Positions 5,954 through 12,380 of a stretch of DNA of 21,181 nt are shown here, piece by piece. This DNA is from a virus (lineage: Duplodnaviria; Heunggongvirae; Uroviricota; Caudoviricetes). Both the position numbers and the translations under genes were made by a program. The first letter of the stretch is position 1. The number at the start of each line of letters is the position of its first letter. The DNA is taken from IMG/VR virus record IMGVR_UViG_2703718854_000005. One strand, given 5' to 3'. The notes beneath the pieces are model-generated. The model had not been told where the DNA came from and did no database searches. It worked only from the letters and a program-made list of their open reading frames with translations.

Positions 5954-6298
5954 ATGCTTAAAACTGACGCTCTTTTGTATTTCGGTTCAAAAACAAAACT
6001 TGCACAAGCAGCAGGTATTCGTTTGGCTTCGCTTTATAGCTGGAAAGGGGATTTAGTTCCCGAAGGTCGCGCGATGCGTCTAGCAGGGAGGATTTGGCGT
6101 GTGCGCAGTGGATCTGGGGGCGGATCGTGGGTCTCTACGAACAGGCAGCCAGTGATGATGGCGAGATCATGCGACCAAAAGAGCCTAACTGGACTGCCTG
6201 GGCCAATGACGTGCGCACAATGCGGATGCTGGATGGCAGAAGCCACAGACAAATTTGCGAAATGTTTGGTCGGGTTCAGCGAGATCCATTCTGGGTAA
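5954..6298 (+). CDS. dicC: DicC-like Cro-type repressor; 3' extent uncertain
   Basis: The first ~43 aa (MLKTDALLYFGSKTKLAQAAGIRLASLYSWKGDLVPEGRAMRL) match DicC as I remember it. The rest of the frame is G/S/W/C-rich and looks non-protein-like, and overlaps an alternative-frame ORF. The end coordinate is just the first stop in frame. Confidence 0.5.
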   Translation: MLKTDALLYFGSKTKLAQAAGIRLASLYSWKGDLVPEGRAMRLAGRIWRVRSGSGGGSWVSTNRQPVMMARSCDQKSLTGLPGPMTCAQCGCWMAEATDKFAKCLVGFSEIHSG

Positions 6299-6435
6299 AA
6301 AACATCATGAGCCCGTCAAAGCTCCGCGAAAAATGGGACGAACTGGTCATCCGCCTGGGACGTTCACCTGTACAGCGTTGTGTTAATCATATTTCTGAAC
6401 CGGATACAGAAATTCCGCCTGGTTTCAGAGGATAA
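6169..6435 (+). CDS. Hypothetical protein with HTH-like segment
   Basis: Frame 1 is open from 6040 and has protein-like composition (MRPKEPNWTAWANDVRTMRMLDGRSHRQICEMFGRVQRDPFW...). Possible starts are TTG 6094, GTG 6127 and ATG 6169. Overlaps the extended dicC frame. Confidence 0.35.
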   Translation: MRPKEPNWTAWANDVRTMRMLDGRSHRQICEMFGRVQRDPFWVKNIMSPSKLREKWDELVIRLGRSPVQRCVNHISEPDTEIPPGFRG

Positions 6436-6475
6436 GTGTTGATTTCAGGTCATGAGGTAATTTTAAGGGGGACTT

Positions 6476-6898
6476 GTGGCAAAAGTTTTTACACAAGAAG
6501 AGCGGGAAAAAATTAAATGGCAGGTGGTGGAACTCGTGCGCCAGAGCGGCCGTGAGACGTTACGGCAACTGGAAGCTAAAACAGGTGCGACTAGATATCT
6601 GATGAGCGTTCTTGCCAGAGAGCTGGTAGCCAGTGGCGATGTATACAACTCCGGCTACGGGTTATTCCCCTCTGAACAGGCGCGTAAGGACTGGCAAAAC
6701 GCCCGCAAAAAACTCTCGAGGGCAAAGGTGAAGAAACCTGCTGTGGTTGATCCGGACCTTATCTGGTCATCACCTGACGGAGAAATACGTCGCTACGACA
6801 GTCGCCTAAACATAATCTGTCGCGAGTGCCGGAAGAGCGAAGTTATGCAGCGCATACTGGCTTTCTATCAGGGTAATTTTCAGGACGTGGCGCAGTGA
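6476..6898 (+). CDS. Hypothetical phage early-region protein (140 aa)
   Basis: GTG start preceded by an AAGGGGG RBS. Stop overlaps the start of the next ORF (GTGA), indicating translational coupling. Confidence 0.6.
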   Translation: MAKVFTQEEREKIKWQVVELVRQSGRETLRQLEAKTGATRYLMSVLARELVASGDVYNSGYGLFPSEQARKDWQNARKKLSRAKVKKPAVVDPDLIWSSPDGEIRRYDSRLNIICRECRKSEVMQRILAFYQGNFQDVAQ

Positions 6899-7251
6899 GT
6901 GCACCGGCAACCATTCTTGATATGTGCTGTGGCAGCCGCATGTTCTGGTTCGATAAGTCTGACGAACGGGCGATATTCAGCGATATCAGAAAAGAAGGAT
7001 ACACATTACGCAATGGGAGACGCTTGATTATCAGCCCTGACATTATCGCAGATTTTCGTGCATTATCATTTGCAGACGCATCTTTTTCGATGGTTGTATT
7101 AGACCCTCCGCATCTTGAGAGTGTTGGTGATAACGCCTGGATGGGAAAGAAATATGGACGGCTGAATAAAGATGCCTGGCGTGATGATTCGCGACAGAGA
7201 TTTAAAGAAGCCTTTCGGGTGTTGAGGCCGCACGGCGTTCTGATTTTTTAA
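6895..7251 (+). pseudogene. SAM-dependent DNA methyltransferase-like fragment (C-terminally truncated)
   Basis: 118-aa ORF with ILDMCCGSR (motif I-like), VVLDPPH (DPPY-type motif IV) and RVLRPHGVLIF (RVLKPGG-like). Ends right after this motif and both other frames stop within a few codons. Too short for a complete methyltransferase. Confidence 0.45.
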
Positions 7252-7673
7252 TGGAATGAAACGCAAATACCGGTAAGCCAGATTCTGGCACTGACAGACA
7301 GAAAACCTGTTATCTGTCAACGAACAGGGAAAAAACGATAAAACCCACTGGATTATTTTTATGAAAGAGGCATCCAGTGAGTAGATTCGTAAGGCTACAG
7401 ATACGTATATCTGAATAATTAAATTCAGTTCTGTAAATAAAATTTAATCCTTAACCGGATGGATTTCTGCACCCTCAGAACATCAGGAGGCCGCCCGAAA
7501 GGGCGGTAGTGAAATGCGAAAGTTCAAAATTATTATTGAAACGGGAATAGCTGGTGGAGATTTTGAGGATGTATTCGAAGTGGACGATGACGCAACACCT
7601 GAGGAAATTCATGACGGAGCATAAGAAATTTTCTTTAACTACTGCAATTACTCATACCACGAAATAAAAGACG

Positions 7674-7865
7674 ATGAGGAAGAACAAAGTGGCTGATTTT
7701 TGTTCAGCTAAATATAACATCAGTTTTGAAGAGCGGGATGAACTATTAATGGACTATGGTGAGTTACGCGGTGGAAGTGCTGCTGATGTCGAATCCTAGC
7801 GTGATGACTATGAAGCGGGAAAAACTCCGGTCGAAGCATATTGTGATGAGTGGGGCGATGAATGA
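7674..7865 (+). pseudogene. Small ORF interrupted by an in-frame TAG (7797..7799)
   Basis: ATG 7674 gives 41 codons, then TAG, then 21 further sense codons (RDDYEAGKTPVEAYCDEWGDE) ending in a TGA that overlaps the next ATG (ATGA at 7862). Confidence 0.3.
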
Positions 7866-8149
7866 GCGAGATTAATTATCAGGAAGGGCATGAAACGGCG
7901 GGGCAAGCAAAACCAGTGGCATGGCGATATCGCTACGTGAAAAAAGGCGTTACGGACTTTCAGGGGAAGTAGTGGTCTGGTGACTGGAAATATGTACCGA
8001 AAAAAGAGGATTGTAACGACAGGCCGAACTATCAAATTCAGGCCTTATTCACTGCCTCACCAGTCCCAGTTACATCAGAAGAACTGGTTAAAGCTGTGCA
8101 CTTTTATGAACAACTAAAACGCGAAAATCCACCAACATCCGGCAACTAG
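7862..8149 (+). pseudogene. Small ORF (95 codons) interrupted by an in-frame TAG (7970..7972)
   Basis: ATG 7862 gives 36 codons, TAG, then 59 stop-free codons in the same frame to TAG 8147..8149. An open run that long in AT-rich sequence is unlikely by chance. Confidence 0.4.
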
Positions 8150-8403
8150 ATTAATGGATTAACTATGTCGGTTAAACGACCAGCCAACTGAAAAAGCGGA
8201 AACCTGATTACAGGTTGCCAGATAAGGCAATGAGCTACCTGGCGCGGAACGGACTGATAAGTATGGGGAATGTTTTACGATGAACCTTTAGACTAAAGAG
8301 TTTGTAACGCTATGTAAGTGATTTTTTCTGGTTTAGATATTTATATGTCCGGCCAAATTGAGGTGTGTTTAAATGTAATTGCACATTGATTGTAGGAGGA
8401 ATA

Positions 8404-8583
8404 ATGAAAAACGCATTGCAGTTTTTGTTTGTTGCGTTCTGGTTGTTCGCATCATGTATGCCCATCATCTTCACAGCAAGGTATATGGAAAAAGTTGATG
8501 TTTTGATATTAATATTTGGATATATAAATGCCCTTTTTTTAGGGGTGTTCATGGCGGTCATGTGCATTGAATACTGGCGGTAA
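8404..8583 (+). CDS. Small hydrophobic membrane protein (59 aa, two predicted TM helices)
   Basis: ATG 8404 preceded by a strong AGGAGG RBS. Product MKNALQFLFVAFWLFASCMPIIFTARYMEKVDVLILIFGYINALFLGVFMAVMCIEYWR. Lies in AT-rich DNA. Confidence 0.5.
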   Translation: MKNALQFLFVAFWLFASCMPIIFTARYMEKVDVLILIFGYINALFLGVFMAVMCIEYWR

Positions 8584-8889
8584 ATACAGCGAACTCCATT
8601 GGTTTAGTTGGATATTTACTGTGCTGGACAAAAACGGTTTGCGGGGAAATCTTAGTTAAGTAGAATGACTGCGGGTGCTTGAGGCTATCTGCCTCGGGCA
8701 TGGACACCAACGGCAGATAGAGAAAAGCCCCAGTTAACATTACGCGTCCTGCAAGACGCTTAACATTAATCTGAGGCCAATTTCATGCTAGACACATGTA
8801 GGTTAGCCTCTTACGTGCCGAAAGGCACGGAGAAGCAGGCTATTGTTAACACCAAGCTGTAATGTCCCCTTTGAACCATTCTAAAATGT

Positions 8890-8917
8890 CCCCAGACAAT
8901 TCTCTGGGGGATTTTTC
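8890..8917 (+). promoter_or_regulatory. Hairpin sequestering the transposase RBS, with terminator-like U-run
   Basis: Stem CCCCAGA (8890..8896) pairs with TCTGGGG (8903..8909), loop caattc. The GGGGGA Shine-Dalgarno (8906..8911) is in the 3' arm. TTTTT at 8912..8916 sits immediately before ATG 8918. Confidence 0.5.
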
Positions 8918-10231
8918 ATGATCAAAGAGACTGTTACGATGAGTCATAAGGAACTCCACCGACTTCAGATTATTCAGGAACAAGCTGCGGCACGCATTGG
9001 CATTTCTATTCGGCAGGTTAAACGTCTGGTGCAACGGTATAGAAATGAAGGGCCTTCTGGTCTGGTTTCCCACCGACGTGGAAAGCGTCCTAATAATTCC
9101 TTTTCTACTGAATTCAGAGCAACAGTAATTTCACTCCTCAAAGGCCGTTACGCTGATTTTGGACCTACGTTTGCGTGCGAAAAATTGCGCGAGATACACG
9201 GTTTATCTTTATCCGTTGAAACTCTCAGAAAGTGGATGATAGAAGAGGGGTTATGGCGTGAACGCCGTCGTAAAATTGCCCGTATATATCAACGCCGCAT
9301 GCGACGACCATCTTACGGTGAACTGATCCAGATTGATGGCTCACCTCATGACTGGTTTGAAAATCGAGGCCCCAGATGTACACTGATCGTATTCATTGAT
9401 GATGCCACCAGTGCGTTGATGGCGTTGCGTTTTGTGCCTGCTGAAACAACCCGGGCTTACATGGAAACCCTCCGGGGTTACCTTAATGATCATGGCGTAC
9501 CGCTCGCTCTCTACTCTGATAGACACAGTATATTCAGGGTAAATAACCCAGAGCGGGAAGGTGAGCTGACCCAGTTCACTCGTGCGATAAAGACACTGGG
9601 CATCGAGCCAATCCATGCCAACAGCCCGCAGGCAAAAGGGCGGGTAGAGCGCGCCAATCAGACACTACAGGACAGGCTGGTCAAAGAAATGCGGCTTCAG
9701 AATATCAGTGATATTGAAACAGCAAATGCATGGTTGCCGACCTTTATTGAAGCCTATAACAACCGGTTCGCTACGTCGCCTCGTACTACTGATAATGCTC
9801 ATCTTGATGTGCACCATTCTGAAGAGGAACTGGGTTATATCTTCAGCCTACAGGCGAAGCGCGTTCTGTCTAAAAATCTCACTTTCCAGTACAAAAGCAG
9901 TGCGTTTCAGGTACGCAGTGAGGGCCGGGGATATCGACTTAGGCATTCGGTTGTTACTGTATGCGAGAACTTTGACGGTGAAATTAACGTTCTGTATGAC
10001 GGGAAAGCGCTGGGCTGGGAAAAGTATGTTGATGGCCCGGAGCCTATACCACTGGATGATGAAAAGAGTGTCCATGAACGAGTGGATAATGCCCGTATTG
10101 ATTTACGCTCAAAATACTATGTTAAACCTAAAGCTGACCATCCCTGGCTTACGCGCCGAACGCAAAGTCATCAGCAAGTTAAGCCCCCGAAGTTACCTAA
10201 AAAGAAGCCTGATCCCGATAAAAAAGATTGA
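8918..10231 (+). CDS. DDE transposase with retroviral-integrase-like (rve) core and N-terminal HTH; IS481/ISNCY-like, family tentative
   Basis: 437-aa ORF. N-terminal HTH-like region (IGISIRQVKRLVQRY), rve-type motifs (IQIDGSPHDW ... YSDRHSIF ... HANSPQAKGRVERANQTLQDRL), K-rich C-terminal tail. No istB-like partner downstream. Confidence 0.85.
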   Translation: MIKETVTMSHKELHRLQIIQEQAAARIGISIRQVKRLVQRYRNEGPSGLVSHRRGKRPNNSFSTEFRATVISLLKGRYADFGPTFACEKLREIHGLSLSVETLRKWMIEEGLWRERRRKIARIYQRRMRRPSYGELIQIDGSPHDWFENRGPRCTLIVFIDDATSALMALRFVPAETTRAYMETLRGYLNDHGVPLALYSDRHSIFRVNNPEREGELTQFTRAIKTLGIEPIHANSPQAKGRVERANQTLQDRLVKEMRLQNISDIETANAWLPTFIEAYNNRFATSPRTTDNAHLDVHHSEEELGYIFSLQAKRVLSKNLTFQYKSSAFQVRSEGRGYRLRHSVVTVCENFDGEINVLYDGKALGWEKYVDGPEPIPLDDEKSVHERVDNARIDLRSKYYVKPKADHPWLTRRTQSHQQVKPPKLPKKKPDPDKKD

Positions 10232-10667
10232 AACCAAGATCGATTCGGTTGAGTGCATATCCATTCATAGGGTAGATTCTTAAGTCGCGTTTCTGGTGTT
10301 CATTTTCGGGTGGTTTGTTACTTGTTTTACCGGGGATATGCCAGAAACGCGCTGAGTCAGTCTGGGCGGTGCGCGTAATGAGGCGTTATGGTAAATAGCC
10401 TATGCTAATGTCCGCTAAGAGCAAGAAGCGGAAGTTGGCAGTTTTGTGGACTGTCCCCACAAAAGTGACTACAGAAATAGTTGCAATTCATAATTGATCA
10501 TGGGTTGTCAGTTAAACTCGTGGCGATTTAAATAGACTAATTGGGAGTGCGTCCATTACTTATATCTTGTAATGTTAACTATCAGAAATGATACAAAGAT
10601 AATATGTCTTTAAAGAAAAGGCTGATGGCGAAAAGTGGCCCGATGAGGGCCACAATACGGCTGTCAC

Positions 10668-11000
10668 TTAGACGTAAATATCAATGGTGCCAGCGGTATT
10701 TGTATCGTCTTTTTTCTCTTCTTTTTTATCAGGCTGAACTGTCGCGTCTTCATTCTTTTTCTCTGCCTGCTGCCTTAACAACTGCTCCAGTTGAGCCCAG
10801 AGGCTTTCAATTTGCTTCTGTACCAATGCAGCCATTTCTTTTTTCTGCTGTGTCGTCATCCCCTCTTCCGATGAGATTTTCCCAAGCTTTTCAGTCAGCA
10901 CCTGAATTTGTCTTGTGATTTTGGCTATTTCTGATGTTCCTTCCGGGGCGGAGTTGTTTGAAATAACGGTTGAGGTATTTCCCTGAATTGTGACAGACAT
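10668..11000 (-). CDS. flxA: FlxA (flagellar-regulon protein of Qin-type prophages)
   Basis: 110-aa ORF matching FlxA as I remember it. GGAGA RBS and a near-consensus sigma-28 promoter upstream. Confidence 0.85.
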   Translation of the reverse strand: MSVTIQGNTSTVISNNSAPEGTSEIAKITRQIQVLTEKLGKISSEEGMTTQQKKEMAALVQKQIESLWAQLEQLLRQQAEKKNEDATVQPDKKEEKKDDTNTAGTIDIYV

Positions 11001-11023
11001 AGATTTCTCCTTTTAAAAAAGCA

Positions 11024-11050
11024 CTATCGGCATGCACAAAAAAATCTTTA
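11024..11050 (-). promoter_or_regulatory. Sigma-28 (FliA) promoter of flxA
   Basis: On the minus strand: TAAAGATT (-35; consensus TAAAGTTT), 11-nt spacer, GCCGATAG (-10; consensus GCCGATAA), about 25 nt upstream of the flxA ATG. Confidence 0.7.
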
Positions 11051-11202
11051 ATCGTATTTCTTGTGTCATTAATTGTTTGATGTTCAGATTGTTTTCCTCG
11101 CGGGCTGGCGCGCCTCAGAAAGTAAAGCTTGTTGACAGGGGTAAACGTTCGGCAATAATTTTCTGCCGCATGCGGGTGTTGCATAAAACGTGTTACGTTC
11201 CT

Positions 11203-11508
11203 TTATCGACAGGTCAGGTCACCGCTCACCCGCCGACGAGAAAGCAACACTGACATGCTAAAGCAAAAAATAGATGAATAAGTTGAGTTGTGCATATGTA
11301 GCCTGACCGTCACAAAGTATATGGTGTCTGTACCAGTAAGATGATGGCCGGACTCTTTAAAAACGAGCTGACCTGCACAATACAGGATGGACTTAGCAAT
11401 GGCTGCTCCTGGCACAAAGCGGACAGTGATCACCGTTCTTACGACTACTTTCTGACTTCCTTCGTGACTTGCCCTAAGCATGTTGTAGTGCGATACTTGT
11501 AATGACAT
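11203..11508 (-). CDS. Dubious 101-aa ORF in the position where K-12 annotates ydfV
   Basis: Length and position between relB and flxA fit ydfV as I remember it. Composition is not convincingly protein-like and it is antisense to the relBE promoter region. Confidence 0.2.
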   Translation of the reverse strand: MSLQVSHYNMLRASHEGSQKVVVRTVITVRFVPGAAIAKSILYCAGQLVFKESGHHLTGTDTIYFVTVRLHMHNSTYSSIFCFSMSVLLSRRRVSGDLTCR

Positions 11509-11532
11509 TTGTAATTACAAGAGGTGTAAGAC
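11480..11532 (+). promoter_or_regulatory. relBE promoter/operator (relO-like)
   Basis: Palindromic TTGTAATGACATTTGTAATTACAAG element containing the perfect palindrome TGTAATTACA, immediately upstream of the relB RBS (GAGGTG). Confidence 0.55.
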
Positions 11533-11772
11533 ATGGGTAGCATTAACCTGCGTATTGACGATGAACTTAAAGCGCGTTCTTACGCCGCGCTTGAAAAAAT
11601 GGGTGTAACTCCTTCTGAAGCGCTTCGTCTCATGCTCGAGTATATCGCTGACAATGAACGCTTGCCGTTCAAACAGACACTCCTGAGTGATGAAGATGCT
11701 GAACTTGTGGAGATAGTGAAAGAACGGCTTCGTAATCCTAAGCCAGTACGTGTGACGCTGGATGAACTCTGA
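11533..11772 (+). CDS. relB: RelB antitoxin
   Basis: 79-aa ORF matching RelB as I remember it (MGSINLRIDDELKARSY...RVTLDEL). Stop overlaps the relE start. Confidence 0.9.
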   Translation: MGSINLRIDDELKARSYAALEKMGVTPSEALRLMLEYIADNERLPFKQTLLSDEDAELVEIVKERLRNPKPVRVTLDEL

Positions 11773-12059
11773 TGGCGTATTTTCTGGATTTTGACGAGCG
11801 GGCACTAAAGGAATGGCGAAAGCTGGGCTCGACGGTACGTGAACAGTTGAAAAAGAAGCTGGTTGAAGTACTTGAGTCACCCCGGATTGAAGCAAACAAG
11901 CTCCGTGGTATGCCTGATTGTTACAAGATTAAGCTCCGGTCTTCAGGCTATCGCCTTGTATACCAGGTTATAGACGAGAAAGTTGTCGTTTTCGTGATTT
12001 CTGTTGGGAAAAGAGAACGCTCGGAAGTATATAGCGAGGCGGTCAAACGCATTCTCTGA
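11772..12059 (+). CDS. relE: RelE mRNA interferase toxin
   Basis: 95-aa ORF matching RelE as I remember it (MAYFLDFDERALKEWRKLG...). Overlapping start/stop with relB. Confidence 0.9.
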   Translation: MAYFLDFDERALKEWRKLGSTVREQLKKKLVEVLESPRIEANKLRGMPDCYKIKLRSSGYRLVYQVIDEKVVVFVISVGKRERSEVYSEAVKRIL

Positions 12060-12130
12060 ACCAAAGCATGACATCTCTGTTTCGCACCGAAGGTGACACT
12101 TCTGCTTTGCGTTGACAGGAGAAGCAGGCT

Positions 12131-12286
12131 ATGAAGCAGCAAAAGGCGATGTTAATCGCCCTGATCGTCATCTGTTTAACCGTCATAGTGACGGCACTGG
12201 TAACGAGGAAAGACCTCTGCGAGGTACGAATCCGAACCGGCCAGACGGAGGTCGCTGTCTTCACAGCTTACGAACCTGAGGAGTAA
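12131..12286 (+). CDS. hokD: HokD (RelF) Hok-family membrane toxin
   Basis: Not in the ORF track (51 aa). Manual translation gives MKQQKAMLIALIVICLTVIVTALVTRKDLCEVRIRTGQTEVAVFTAYEPEE. Lies directly downstream of relE. Confidence 0.85.
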   Translation: MKQQKAMLIALIVICLTVIVTALVTRKDLCEVRIRTGQTEVAVFTAYEPEE

Positions 12287-12354
12287 GAGACCCGGCGGGG
12301 GAGAAATCCCTCGCCACCTCTGATGTGGCAGGCATCCTCAACGCACCCGCACTT

Positions 12355-12380
12355 AACCCGCTTCGGCGGGTTTTTGTTTT
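12355..12380 (+). terminator. Intrinsic terminator downstream of hokD
   Basis: Stem CCCGC (12357..12361), loop ttcg, GCGGG (12366..12370), followed by TTTTTGTTTTTATTTT. Confidence 0.6.

Follow-up and report, generated by a model that had tools for sequence, protein, structure and literature searches.

We analysed a 21,181-nt stretch of DNA (IMG/VR record IMGVR_UViG_2703718854_000005; hereafter, the window), a Qin-type lambdoid prophage of Escherichia coli with 99.9% identity to the deposited phage PhiR42_1, in which the genes run in the order rspB, int, xis ... transposase, flxA, ydfV, relBE, hokD, rem, ydfU and Q. An earlier note on this DNA had described positions 8584–10603 as an insertion sequence (IS)-like element built around the transposase gene. 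Our comparison with other phages, plasmids and genomes points to a different unit, and we consider it highly probable that positions 8844–12117 are a cargo-carrying transposon of the IS1202 family, with an ISEsa1-type DDE transposase, inserted in the start region of a prophage hok gene. The features of the locus are listed in Table 1.

Table 1. Features of the transposon and of the hok/sok locus that it splits (window coordinates)
Feature	Position	Strand	Basis or remark
hok mRNA leader with sok/mok region, 5′ half of split locus	8673–8843	+	Rfam RF01794
Left copy of the 15-bp target-site duplication, GGAGAAGCAGGCTAT	8829–8843	+	Holds the hok Shine–Dalgarno sequence and the 'AT' of the hok ATG
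Left terminal inverted repeat, TGTTAACACCAAGCTGTAATGTCCCCTT	8844–8871	+	Conserved in relatives as distant as Hahella
Outer transposase-site-like repeat, TAATGTCCCC	8860–8869	+	Within the left terminal repeat
Inner repeat, AAATGTCCCC	8884–8893	+	Overlaps the ribosome-binding-site hairpin
Transposase gene, ISEsa1 type (IS1202 family, listed under ISNCY)	8918–10231	+	437 aa, unbroken open reading frame
Conserved non-coding tail of the transposase module	10232–10436	+	87–99% identical in all enterobacterial relatives
Variable cargo segment	10437–11404	-	flxA and most of ydfV
flxA	10668–11000	-	Pfam FlxA match
ydfV	11203–11508	-	Mostly within the cargo segment
Conserved right module	11405–12117	+	83–99% identical in 11 other elements
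relB	11533–11772	+	Pfam RelB (PF04221), 112 bits
relE	11772–12059	+	Pfam ParE_toxin (PF05016), 51 bits
Right copy of the 15-bp target-site duplication, GGAGAAGCAGGCTAT	12118–12132	+	Identical to the left copy
hokD coding sequence, 3′ half of split locus	12131–12286	+	Pfam HOK_GEF (PF01848), 82.9 bits

The earlier note's 437-aa transposase was borne out: the open reading frame (ORF) matches the NCBIfam model ISNCY_2 (NF033594, 'ISNCY family transposase') with 456 bits against a cutoff of 250, and it is the transposase of a mobile element. Its catalytic core is weakly recognised by Pfam, rve_3 scoring only 24.4 bits (model cutoff 26.5), and a PDB sequence search returned just one marginal match, to a retroviral integrase (E = 0.0098). 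Helix-turn-helix (HTH) domains are present at the N terminus (HTH_28, HTH_29 and HTH_32), and the catalytic DDE residues (D140, D201 and E244) are invariant in relatives down to 41% identity. Plasmids of Enterobacter, Klebsiella, Phytobacter and Salmonella carry genes that are 98–99% identical to it at the DNA level and that the NCBI pipeline (PGAP) annotates as 'IS1202-like element ISEsa1 family transposase'; the assignment of the window element to ISEsa1 is taken solely from these product names. The plasmid genes encode 446 aa from the first ATG and 439 aa from the second, the latter being the length of the catalogued ISEsa1 protein, and no copy lies within the first 50 kb of plasmid pESA3 of C. 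sakazakii, the ISEsa1 type host. In the window, PGAP divides the continuous ORF into 'ISNCY family transposase, incomplete' and 'ydfW'; that these are one gene is relevant to genome annotation.

Ends, target-site duplication and empty site

At the left, the window and four plasmid contexts with different left flanks are identical from TGTTAACACC at 8844, and only loosely similar upstream of it; a hok/sok leader occupies the upstream side in each of them. At the right, an ungapped search of 8780–8930 against 10330–10620 for an inverted repeat near the apparent end of homology gave at best 14/22, not above unrelated positions, and the right end was therefore sought further downstream. Identity between the window, an IncF plasmid (L004) and an IncI plasmid (L005) continues through flxA, ydfV, relB and relE to ...CTTTGCGTTGACA at 12117 and stops right after GTTGACA, where the three pass into different hok coding sequences. 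Comparison with more than 20 further contexts likewise gave ends at 8844 (TGTTAAC...) and 12117 (...GTTGACA). The right terminal inverted repeat finishes ...CACTTCTGCTTTGCGTTGACA, and the TGT...ACA termini agree at 21/28 positions (16/22 of the first 22) when the left is set against the reverse complement of the right. Each end holds two AATGTC-type subterminal repeats, those at the right reading AAGTGTCACC and AGATGTCATG as reverse complement and standing at matching distances; these repeats (AATGTCCCC) are putative transposase-binding sites.

The last six positions of the right end (12112–12117) form a perfect outward-facing −35 hexamer, TTGACA, and the sequence TGTAAT (8859–8864) lies 15 nt inside the left tip; both hexamers are kept in distant relatives. 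We speculate that the two ends, if abutted 2–3 bp apart, would yield a strong junction promoter of the kind known from copy-out/paste-in ISs.

Perfect 15-bp direct repeats flank these ends, and each context has its own: GGAGAAGCAGGCTAT in the window, GGAGAAGAAGGCCAT in L004 and TGGAGGGGCTATGAT in L005. The empty site, which the earlier note had proposed to seek in related prophages, is supplied by phage vB_EcoS-640R1, which has no transposon at hok and in which the 15-mer is present once; after deletion of 8844–12132, the window is colinear with the intact hok/sok locus of this phage (93.4% over 515 columns). On this comparative evidence, we regard the ends, the duplication and the empty site as established, and the mobile unit in the window is 8844–12117, 3,274 bp in length.

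The two flanks of the unit are halves of one hok/sok locus. The upstream half is the hok leader, recognised by Rfam RF01794 (labelled 'sok', in fact the hok leader) with 104 bits at 8673–8844 over the whole model (1–157/157; gathering score 59). The model ends at the hok AUG, and the transposon junction falls in this start codon. This leader region is 93% identical to the hokW/sokW loci of Shiga toxin (Stx) phages and colinear with the intact hok of vB_EcoS-640R1. The downstream half, hokD, is near-identical to the hok gene of that empty-site phage and directly follows relE with no terminator between them, the next terminator-like site beyond relE being at 12355–12372. A truncated mok frame (8786–8863) crosses the junction into the transposon, where it stops at a TAA (8861–8863). 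At the other side, a sub-threshold Rfam isrK-like match (12295–12376, 25 bits, E = 0.017) covers the hokD 3′ untranslated region and the terminator, and most likely reflects only the terminator hairpin.

In our reading, the element entered the Shine–Dalgarno (SD)/start-codon region of the prophage hok gene through a 15-bp staggered cut. The insertion cut the hok coding sequence off from its promoter, its leader and sok and left it, together with the duplicated SD, directly downstream of relE; the relB-relE-hokD ('relBEF') arrangement of E. coli K-12 arose in this way.

The earlier note had placed the ends of a roughly 1.85–2-kb IS at an inverted match of TTAACATTA/AGTTAACATTAC. The motifs are there, with AGTTAACATTAC at 8732–8743 (+) and 10569–10580 (−), and the 12-bp match is exact and unexpected by chance (0 expected in shuffles); TTAACATTA is at 8734–8742 and, as a second subterminal copy, at 8760–8768. 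Their proposed role as element ends did not hold. Both left copies are arms of a stem in the hok leader, lie within a stretch (8732–8768) that is conserved without the transposase in Stx phages and phage 640R1, and are unchanged in phages that have hok but no transposase; present as they are in hok leaders without the transposon, the motifs are target DNA and not transposon ends. Identity between contexts begins only at 8844, the 12-bp match does not extend, and no duplication is found at these positions. The empty site and the context-specific 15-bp duplications at 8844 and 12117 already refute an IS with such ends, to which we give practically no credence. The proposed extent fails with it: 8584–10603 holds the last 260 bp of the hok/sok leader followed by the left module of the transposon, so that the true left end lies inside it and the true right end 1.5 kb beyond it, and no inverted repeat occurs at the proposed ends. 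The right-hand 12-mer stands isolated in passenger DNA. Its sequence (GTAATGTTAACT) resembles a fusion of the left-end words TGTAATGT and TGTTAAC, and it may be either a chance match or what is left of the end of another element. The idea that 10569–10580 marks a second hok/sok remnant was considered and rejected, as there is no Rfam match, only the bare 12-mer. A second hok remnant at 10273–10437, a segment found in many plasmids without an annotated gene, was rejected likewise; the plasmid segments are IS26-truncated remnants of the same transposase tail.

Modules, cargo and the length of the element

The family was surveyed by a protein-guided scan of one genome per species combined with a motif scan of the ends. 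Elements of 3.3 to 12.8 kb have the same two ends, and perfect flanking repeats of 13–16 bp were found in at least 16 independent contexts among the one-genome-per-species loci. IncF plasmids, IncI plasmids and Shigella carry the 3,301-bp form, which encodes an intact transposase, at 99% identity. Distant relatives in Hahella and Chromatiales (50–63% amino-acid identity) are compact, at 1.36–1.45 kb, and Hahella carries 10 compact copies with 15–17-bp repeats. In Rhabdochlamydiaceae and Castellaniella, the right-end motif CA(C/T)TTCT..TTTGCGTTGACA lies a little more than 100 nt beyond the transposase match, a spacing that points to compact elements there too.

The enterobacterial elements consist of three parts: a conserved left module (8844 to ~10436), a variable middle and a right module (~11405–12117) that is likewise conserved. 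Transposase, flxA, ydfV, relB and relE are the sole ORFs between the ends of the window element. The '335 bp of non-coding DNA' that the earlier note saw behind the transposase consists of two things, the conserved tail of the left module (10232–10436) and variable cargo downstream of flxA (10437–10667). The 205-bp tail is absent from the compact distant relatives and stops exactly at the cargo slot; it contains TAATGTCCGC (10406–10415) in the orientation of the left-end repeats. Homology between contexts breaks at 10422–10437 in every context, and other family members hold up to 10.5 kb of unrelated DNA in the slot. An element of 12,843 bp on a Phytobacter IncF plasmid carries ncrYCBA, chrBA and other genes between the same ends and is flanked by the duplication GGAGAAGTCAGCTAT, while the slot of pK29-type plasmids holds ISEsa2, a cytochrome b gene and a cation-diffusion transporter gene.

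At the right end, relBE adjoins the terminus in 11 elements, and in two diverged Scandinavium elements its place is taken by tacA-tacT. In these (L029, 16952–17697; L043, 13275–14020), TacA (DUF1778) is paired with a GNAT toxin, and the transposase protein is about 80% identical. The lineage thus seems to maintain a type II toxin–antitoxin module at its right end, and relBE may act as an addiction module for the element. PGAP gives the window RelB and RelE the same protein accessions as K-12-type RelB and RelE.

Harmer, Pong and Hall (2023; PMC10132070) list ISEsa1 (ISfinder; ISNCY, IS1202 group) with 1,609 bp, a 15/22 terminal repeat, no duplication and no target. A compact ISEsa1 of about 1.6 kb, as catalogued, running from about 8844 to 10425–10436 without duplication, could sit beside ordinary prophage genes, with flxA, ydfV and relBE outside it. 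The end of homology among many plasmid copies at 10422–10437 is in keeping with this, as are the compact format of the distant relatives and the span from 8844 to 10425 which, with 27 deleted nt restored, gives exactly the catalogued length (PMC10132070). However, there is no inverted repeat at 10400–10440 (best ungapped, 14/22) and neither an inverted repeat nor a duplication at the 1,609-bp point (10425), whereas the right-end motif shared with the distant compact relatives sits after relE, and copies of the same 3.3-kb unit lie in three distinct hok genes, with a separate duplication in each case. The break at ~10436 is instead the boundary of the cargo slot and, in pK29-type copies, the junction with an inserted ISEsa2. 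In these copies the ISEsa2 insertion point lies 1,609–1,610 bp from 8844, which suggests that the catalogued right end of ISEsa1 may be the ISEsa2 junction, although the listed 15/22 fits the true right end (16/22) better. We therefore judge a compact ISEsa1 at this locus improbable. An ISEsa1 entry ending ...GCGTTGACA would mean that a compact form exists and would leave the boundaries in the window unchanged.

Insertion into hok genes and expression of the transposase

At least 10 different hok genes have been targeted, all in one orientation, among them Qin hokD and R1-like, pnd-like and hokE-like genes. Most hok insertions have the left end at most about 2 nt from the hok ATG, the hokE-like gene being entered 8 nt past it, and elements in different hok genes each have their own 13–16-bp duplication. 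Insertions outside hok also exist, including ones with perfect 14–16-bp repeats, so that hok is a hotspot and not an obligate site. A soft preference for CAA or GGCAA just 5′ of the duplication is seen at the non-hok and Hahella sites and is common to the hok leaders. From this pattern we favour a real choice of the hok target by the element over selection or recombination, because selection for hok inactivation would not explain the positional precision and recombination through hok homology would not give context-specific repeats on both sides.

In Leclercia (L027, 6627–11560), two different family members are arranged head-to-tail at one hok start site, and in Hahella (L032, 9929–11395) two identical copies stand in tandem with one duplication between them; such repeated use of one site resembles the behaviour of site-specific transposons. 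An IMG/VR contig (L150, 712–4011) has a pnd-type hok repeat, GGAGGGGCTATGATG, at its left and the Qin hokD repeat at its right, and is probably a recombinant between two insertions. In Citrobacter portucalensis (L026, ~9850–9927), the left end abuts the reverse complement of hok SD/coding sequence (ATGGCCTTCTTCTCC|TGTTAAC) and no right end was found within 10 kb, an arrangement that suggests an inversion or an intramolecular transposition product.

A further explanation is that the gene is a fixed, domesticated or decaying prophage gene that reached hok loci elsewhere by homologous recombination between them. The transposase region is present in 802/5,426 complete E. coli genomes (about 15%), as a single copy at one locus (median 1 copy, maximum 3), almost all of 60 IMG/VR contigs have the same hokD insertion, the allele carries a 9-aa HTH deletion and is marked as a pseudogene by PGAP, and the mixed flanks of L150 show that recombination between copies occurs. 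Yet the duplications differ by hok context and match the local hok gene on both sides, whereas recombination in the flanks would carry donor repeats along; the perfect repeats outside hok and the near-identity of the intact form across IncF, IncI and Shigella also speak against this explanation. We rate this explanation as low as, or marginally lower than, that of a compact ISEsa1. The earlier note had itself named two outcomes that would count against it, a catalogued IS with other termini and a fixed locus such as the intact form of a K-12 pseudogene. Each has come about in part, in that the gene belongs to a named IS type (ISEsa1) with different termini and is the intact form of the K-12 remnant ydfW; the transposon to which it belongs is nevertheless real, and it is no fixed phage gene.

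The window copy has both ends, the duplication and the catalytic D140, D201 and E244 intact. Its ORF lacks 27 nt, in frame, at about 8974–8980 between TCAGGA repeats, which removes from the first HTH domain 9 residues that all seven diverse relatives compared retain; HTH_28 is matched in full by the 446-aa form (positions 1–52/52, 46.8 bits) and only over positions 16–52 by the 437-aa form (32.4 bits). Both the 3,274-bp and the 3,301-bp forms occur in E. coli. Given the loss in the HTH domain and the single copy per E. coli genome, the window copy has probably been immobilised recently. K-12 MG1655 (L091) has lost window positions 6100–10046 (3.9 kb), and with them phage replication genes, the hok leader, the left end of the transposon and the greater part of the transposase gene. 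What is left of the gene is YdfW (49 aa, GTG at 10082; 10082–10231), the in-frame C-terminal tail of the transposase, which earlier bore the label intK, an integrase fragment.

As described in the earlier note, the transposase SD is buried in a terminator-like hairpin. The hairpin (8889–8910; 8 pairs and a 6-nt loop) is followed by AUUUUUC and then the transposase ATG, with the likely SD, GGGGGA, at 8906–8911 and the U-tract at 8912–8916. It folds with −14.5 kcal/mol (z = −2.47; 1/200 shuffles folds as well) and was also flagged by a terminator scan, and its 5′ arm overlaps the inner transposase-site-like repeat. Equivalent hairpins with different stem sequences recur in Leclercia, Scandinavium, Hahella and Chromatiales relatives, which fold the inner AAATGTC(C/A)CC repeat onto a G-rich SD. 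The window has the stem CCCCAGA/TCTGGGG, two Escherichia-like genomes have CCCCG/CGGGG, Scandinavium has CACCCA/TGGTGGG, and Hahella and Chromatiales have CCCCTTTTG/CAGGAGGGG; the U-tract follows only in the enterobacterial copies. Individual folds were used for this comparison, as the 3′ arm lies in differing register between lineages and makes column covariation counts misleading. Like the ends, the modular build, the repeated finding of the element in hok genes and the reappearance of the hairpin among relatives are in our view established by the comparisons.

The hairpin most likely terminates and translationally silences transcripts that read through from outside, which makes functional sense given that an element inserted at hok has the hok promoter directly upstream of its transposase gene and pointing the same way. 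In IS10 and IS50, a fold-back sequesters the transposase ribosome-binding site and protects it from outside transcription. The likeness lies in a hairpin near the end that pairs with the transposase SD, and the parallel would extend to the window; the differences are that the 5′ arm of the window hairpin doubles as the inner repeat and that the enterobacterial copies are terminator-like through the U-tract. As a promoter for the transposase itself, TTGAAC (8871–8876) and GACAAT (8895–8900) with an 18-nt spacer (8/12 positions) can be named only speculatively.

Place among known elements

Taken together, the data lead us to a broader proposal, which we offer tentatively, since we lean slightly against all of its parts holding at once. 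In it, the ISEsa1-type elements would be a hok-seeking transposon family that makes ~15-bp duplications, enters hok genes of plasmids and prophages at the SD/start region in one orientation, carries relBE or tacAT at its right end and shuttles cargo, nickel and chromate resistance genes among it, replacing hok/sok with its own module and placing hok under relBE control; relBEF, flxA, ydfV and ydfW of K-12 would be relics of one transposition, and the catalogued ISEsa1 would be incompletely delimited.

Several points weigh against this reading and that of the window. The whole case is one of comparative sequence, and no transposition was observed. About six to nine insertions lie outside hok (L015, L023, L024, L029, L043 and L083 among them), and selection, or the presence of related plasmids in the sample, could make the preference for hok look stronger than it is. 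An IMG/VR contig (L121, 1345–4645) carries a 3,301-bp flxA-type element at a non-hok site with a 6-bp repeat only, CGCCTT, the one clear exception to the rule of 13–16-bp duplications. A genuine compact form of ISEsa1 may exist, given the catalogued 1,609 bp, 15/22 repeat and absence of a duplication. Finally, no sigma-70 promoter for the transposase passed the promoter scan, and conservation of the hairpin may reflect DNA binding and not RNA structure, as its 5′ arm is also a putative transposase-binding repeat.

IS1202-family elements fall into classes with duplications of 3–5 bp, of more than 15 bp (16–28 bp in Table 7 of PMC10132070) or with none. The window element has the transposase expected of the family, with HTH and DDE RNase H-fold domains recognised by NCBIfam and Pfam models, and the expected ends, TGT...ACA with imperfect repeats of ~22–29 bp and an extra subterminal inner-repeat copy at each. 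Its 15-bp duplication (13–16 bp in relatives, 15–17 bp in Hahella) is closest to the long class and contradicts the 'none' given for ISEsa1. A simple IS of 1.3–1.75 kb encodes the transposase only; at 3,274 bp and with flxA, ydfV, relB and relE, the window element is more aptly called a transporter IS or a small IS1202-family transposon. In contrast to the catalogued ISEsa1, the unit (3,301 bp without the deletion) carries passenger genes, makes a 15-bp duplication and has hok as a strong hotspot. Ends, duplication length and preferred target are thereby supplied for the one IS1202 subgroup that had been reported without duplication or target.

Within the family, the ISAjo2 group, which targets dif/pdif, is similar in its single TnsB-like DDE transposase, TGT...ACA ends, extra subterminal repeats and orientation-specific insertion, always equally far from a conserved sequence and without helper proteins. 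The window element differs in its target (the hok translation-initiation region and not XerC/D sites), in its duplication (~15 bp, not 5) and in carrying cargo and a toxin–antitoxin module. With these findings, hok translation-initiation regions would join the few specific targets known for single-transposase elements. The transporter ISs tISKpn21, tISKpn65 and tISRel10 also have additional ORFs in the interval from the transposase gene to the right end; these amount to one unknown ORF each, whereas the window lineage has a toxin–antitoxin module at the right end and a slot of 1 to 10.5 kb that can include nickel and chromate resistance. Since clinical plasmids of Klebsiella, Enterobacter and Phytobacter bear nickel and chromate resistance genes on this vehicle, its correct delimitation matters for mobile-element annotation.

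Outside the family, Tn7-like transposons share only the TGT/ACA ends and the repeated end sites; no TnsA, TnsC or target selector is present among the ORFs between the ends. Tn3-family transposons are reportedly furnished with integral toxin–antitoxin pairs, as work by Lima-Mendez et al. from 2020 is said to describe, and the likeness lies in a type II pair conserved beside the transposition functions. In the window element, by contrast, the transposase is unrelated, there is no resolvase/res, and the toxin–antitoxin module abuts the right repeat and reads outward into the target gene. No description of a transposon with these ends, duplication, hok preference, transposase and flxA/ydfV co-passengers was found in the searchable literature, the coverage of which is incomplete.

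The toxin genes concerned are of known type, relBE being a type II toxin–antitoxin system and the two halves of the split locus a hok leader and a Hok/Gef coding sequence. The genes are the same as those of relBEF/hokD in the Qin prophage of E. coli K-12 (Gotfredsen and Gerdes 1998, as cited in PMC6379469), and relBE was stated to have integrated into hokD, with plasmids as its probable source (work by Ramisetty and Santhosh from 2016, as cited in PMC6379469). Transposition of the element described here would provide a concrete mechanism for the arrival of the paradigm relBE, flxA and ydfV in the Qin prophage and for the fusion to hokD, and YdfW of K-12 is identified as the tail of its transposase.

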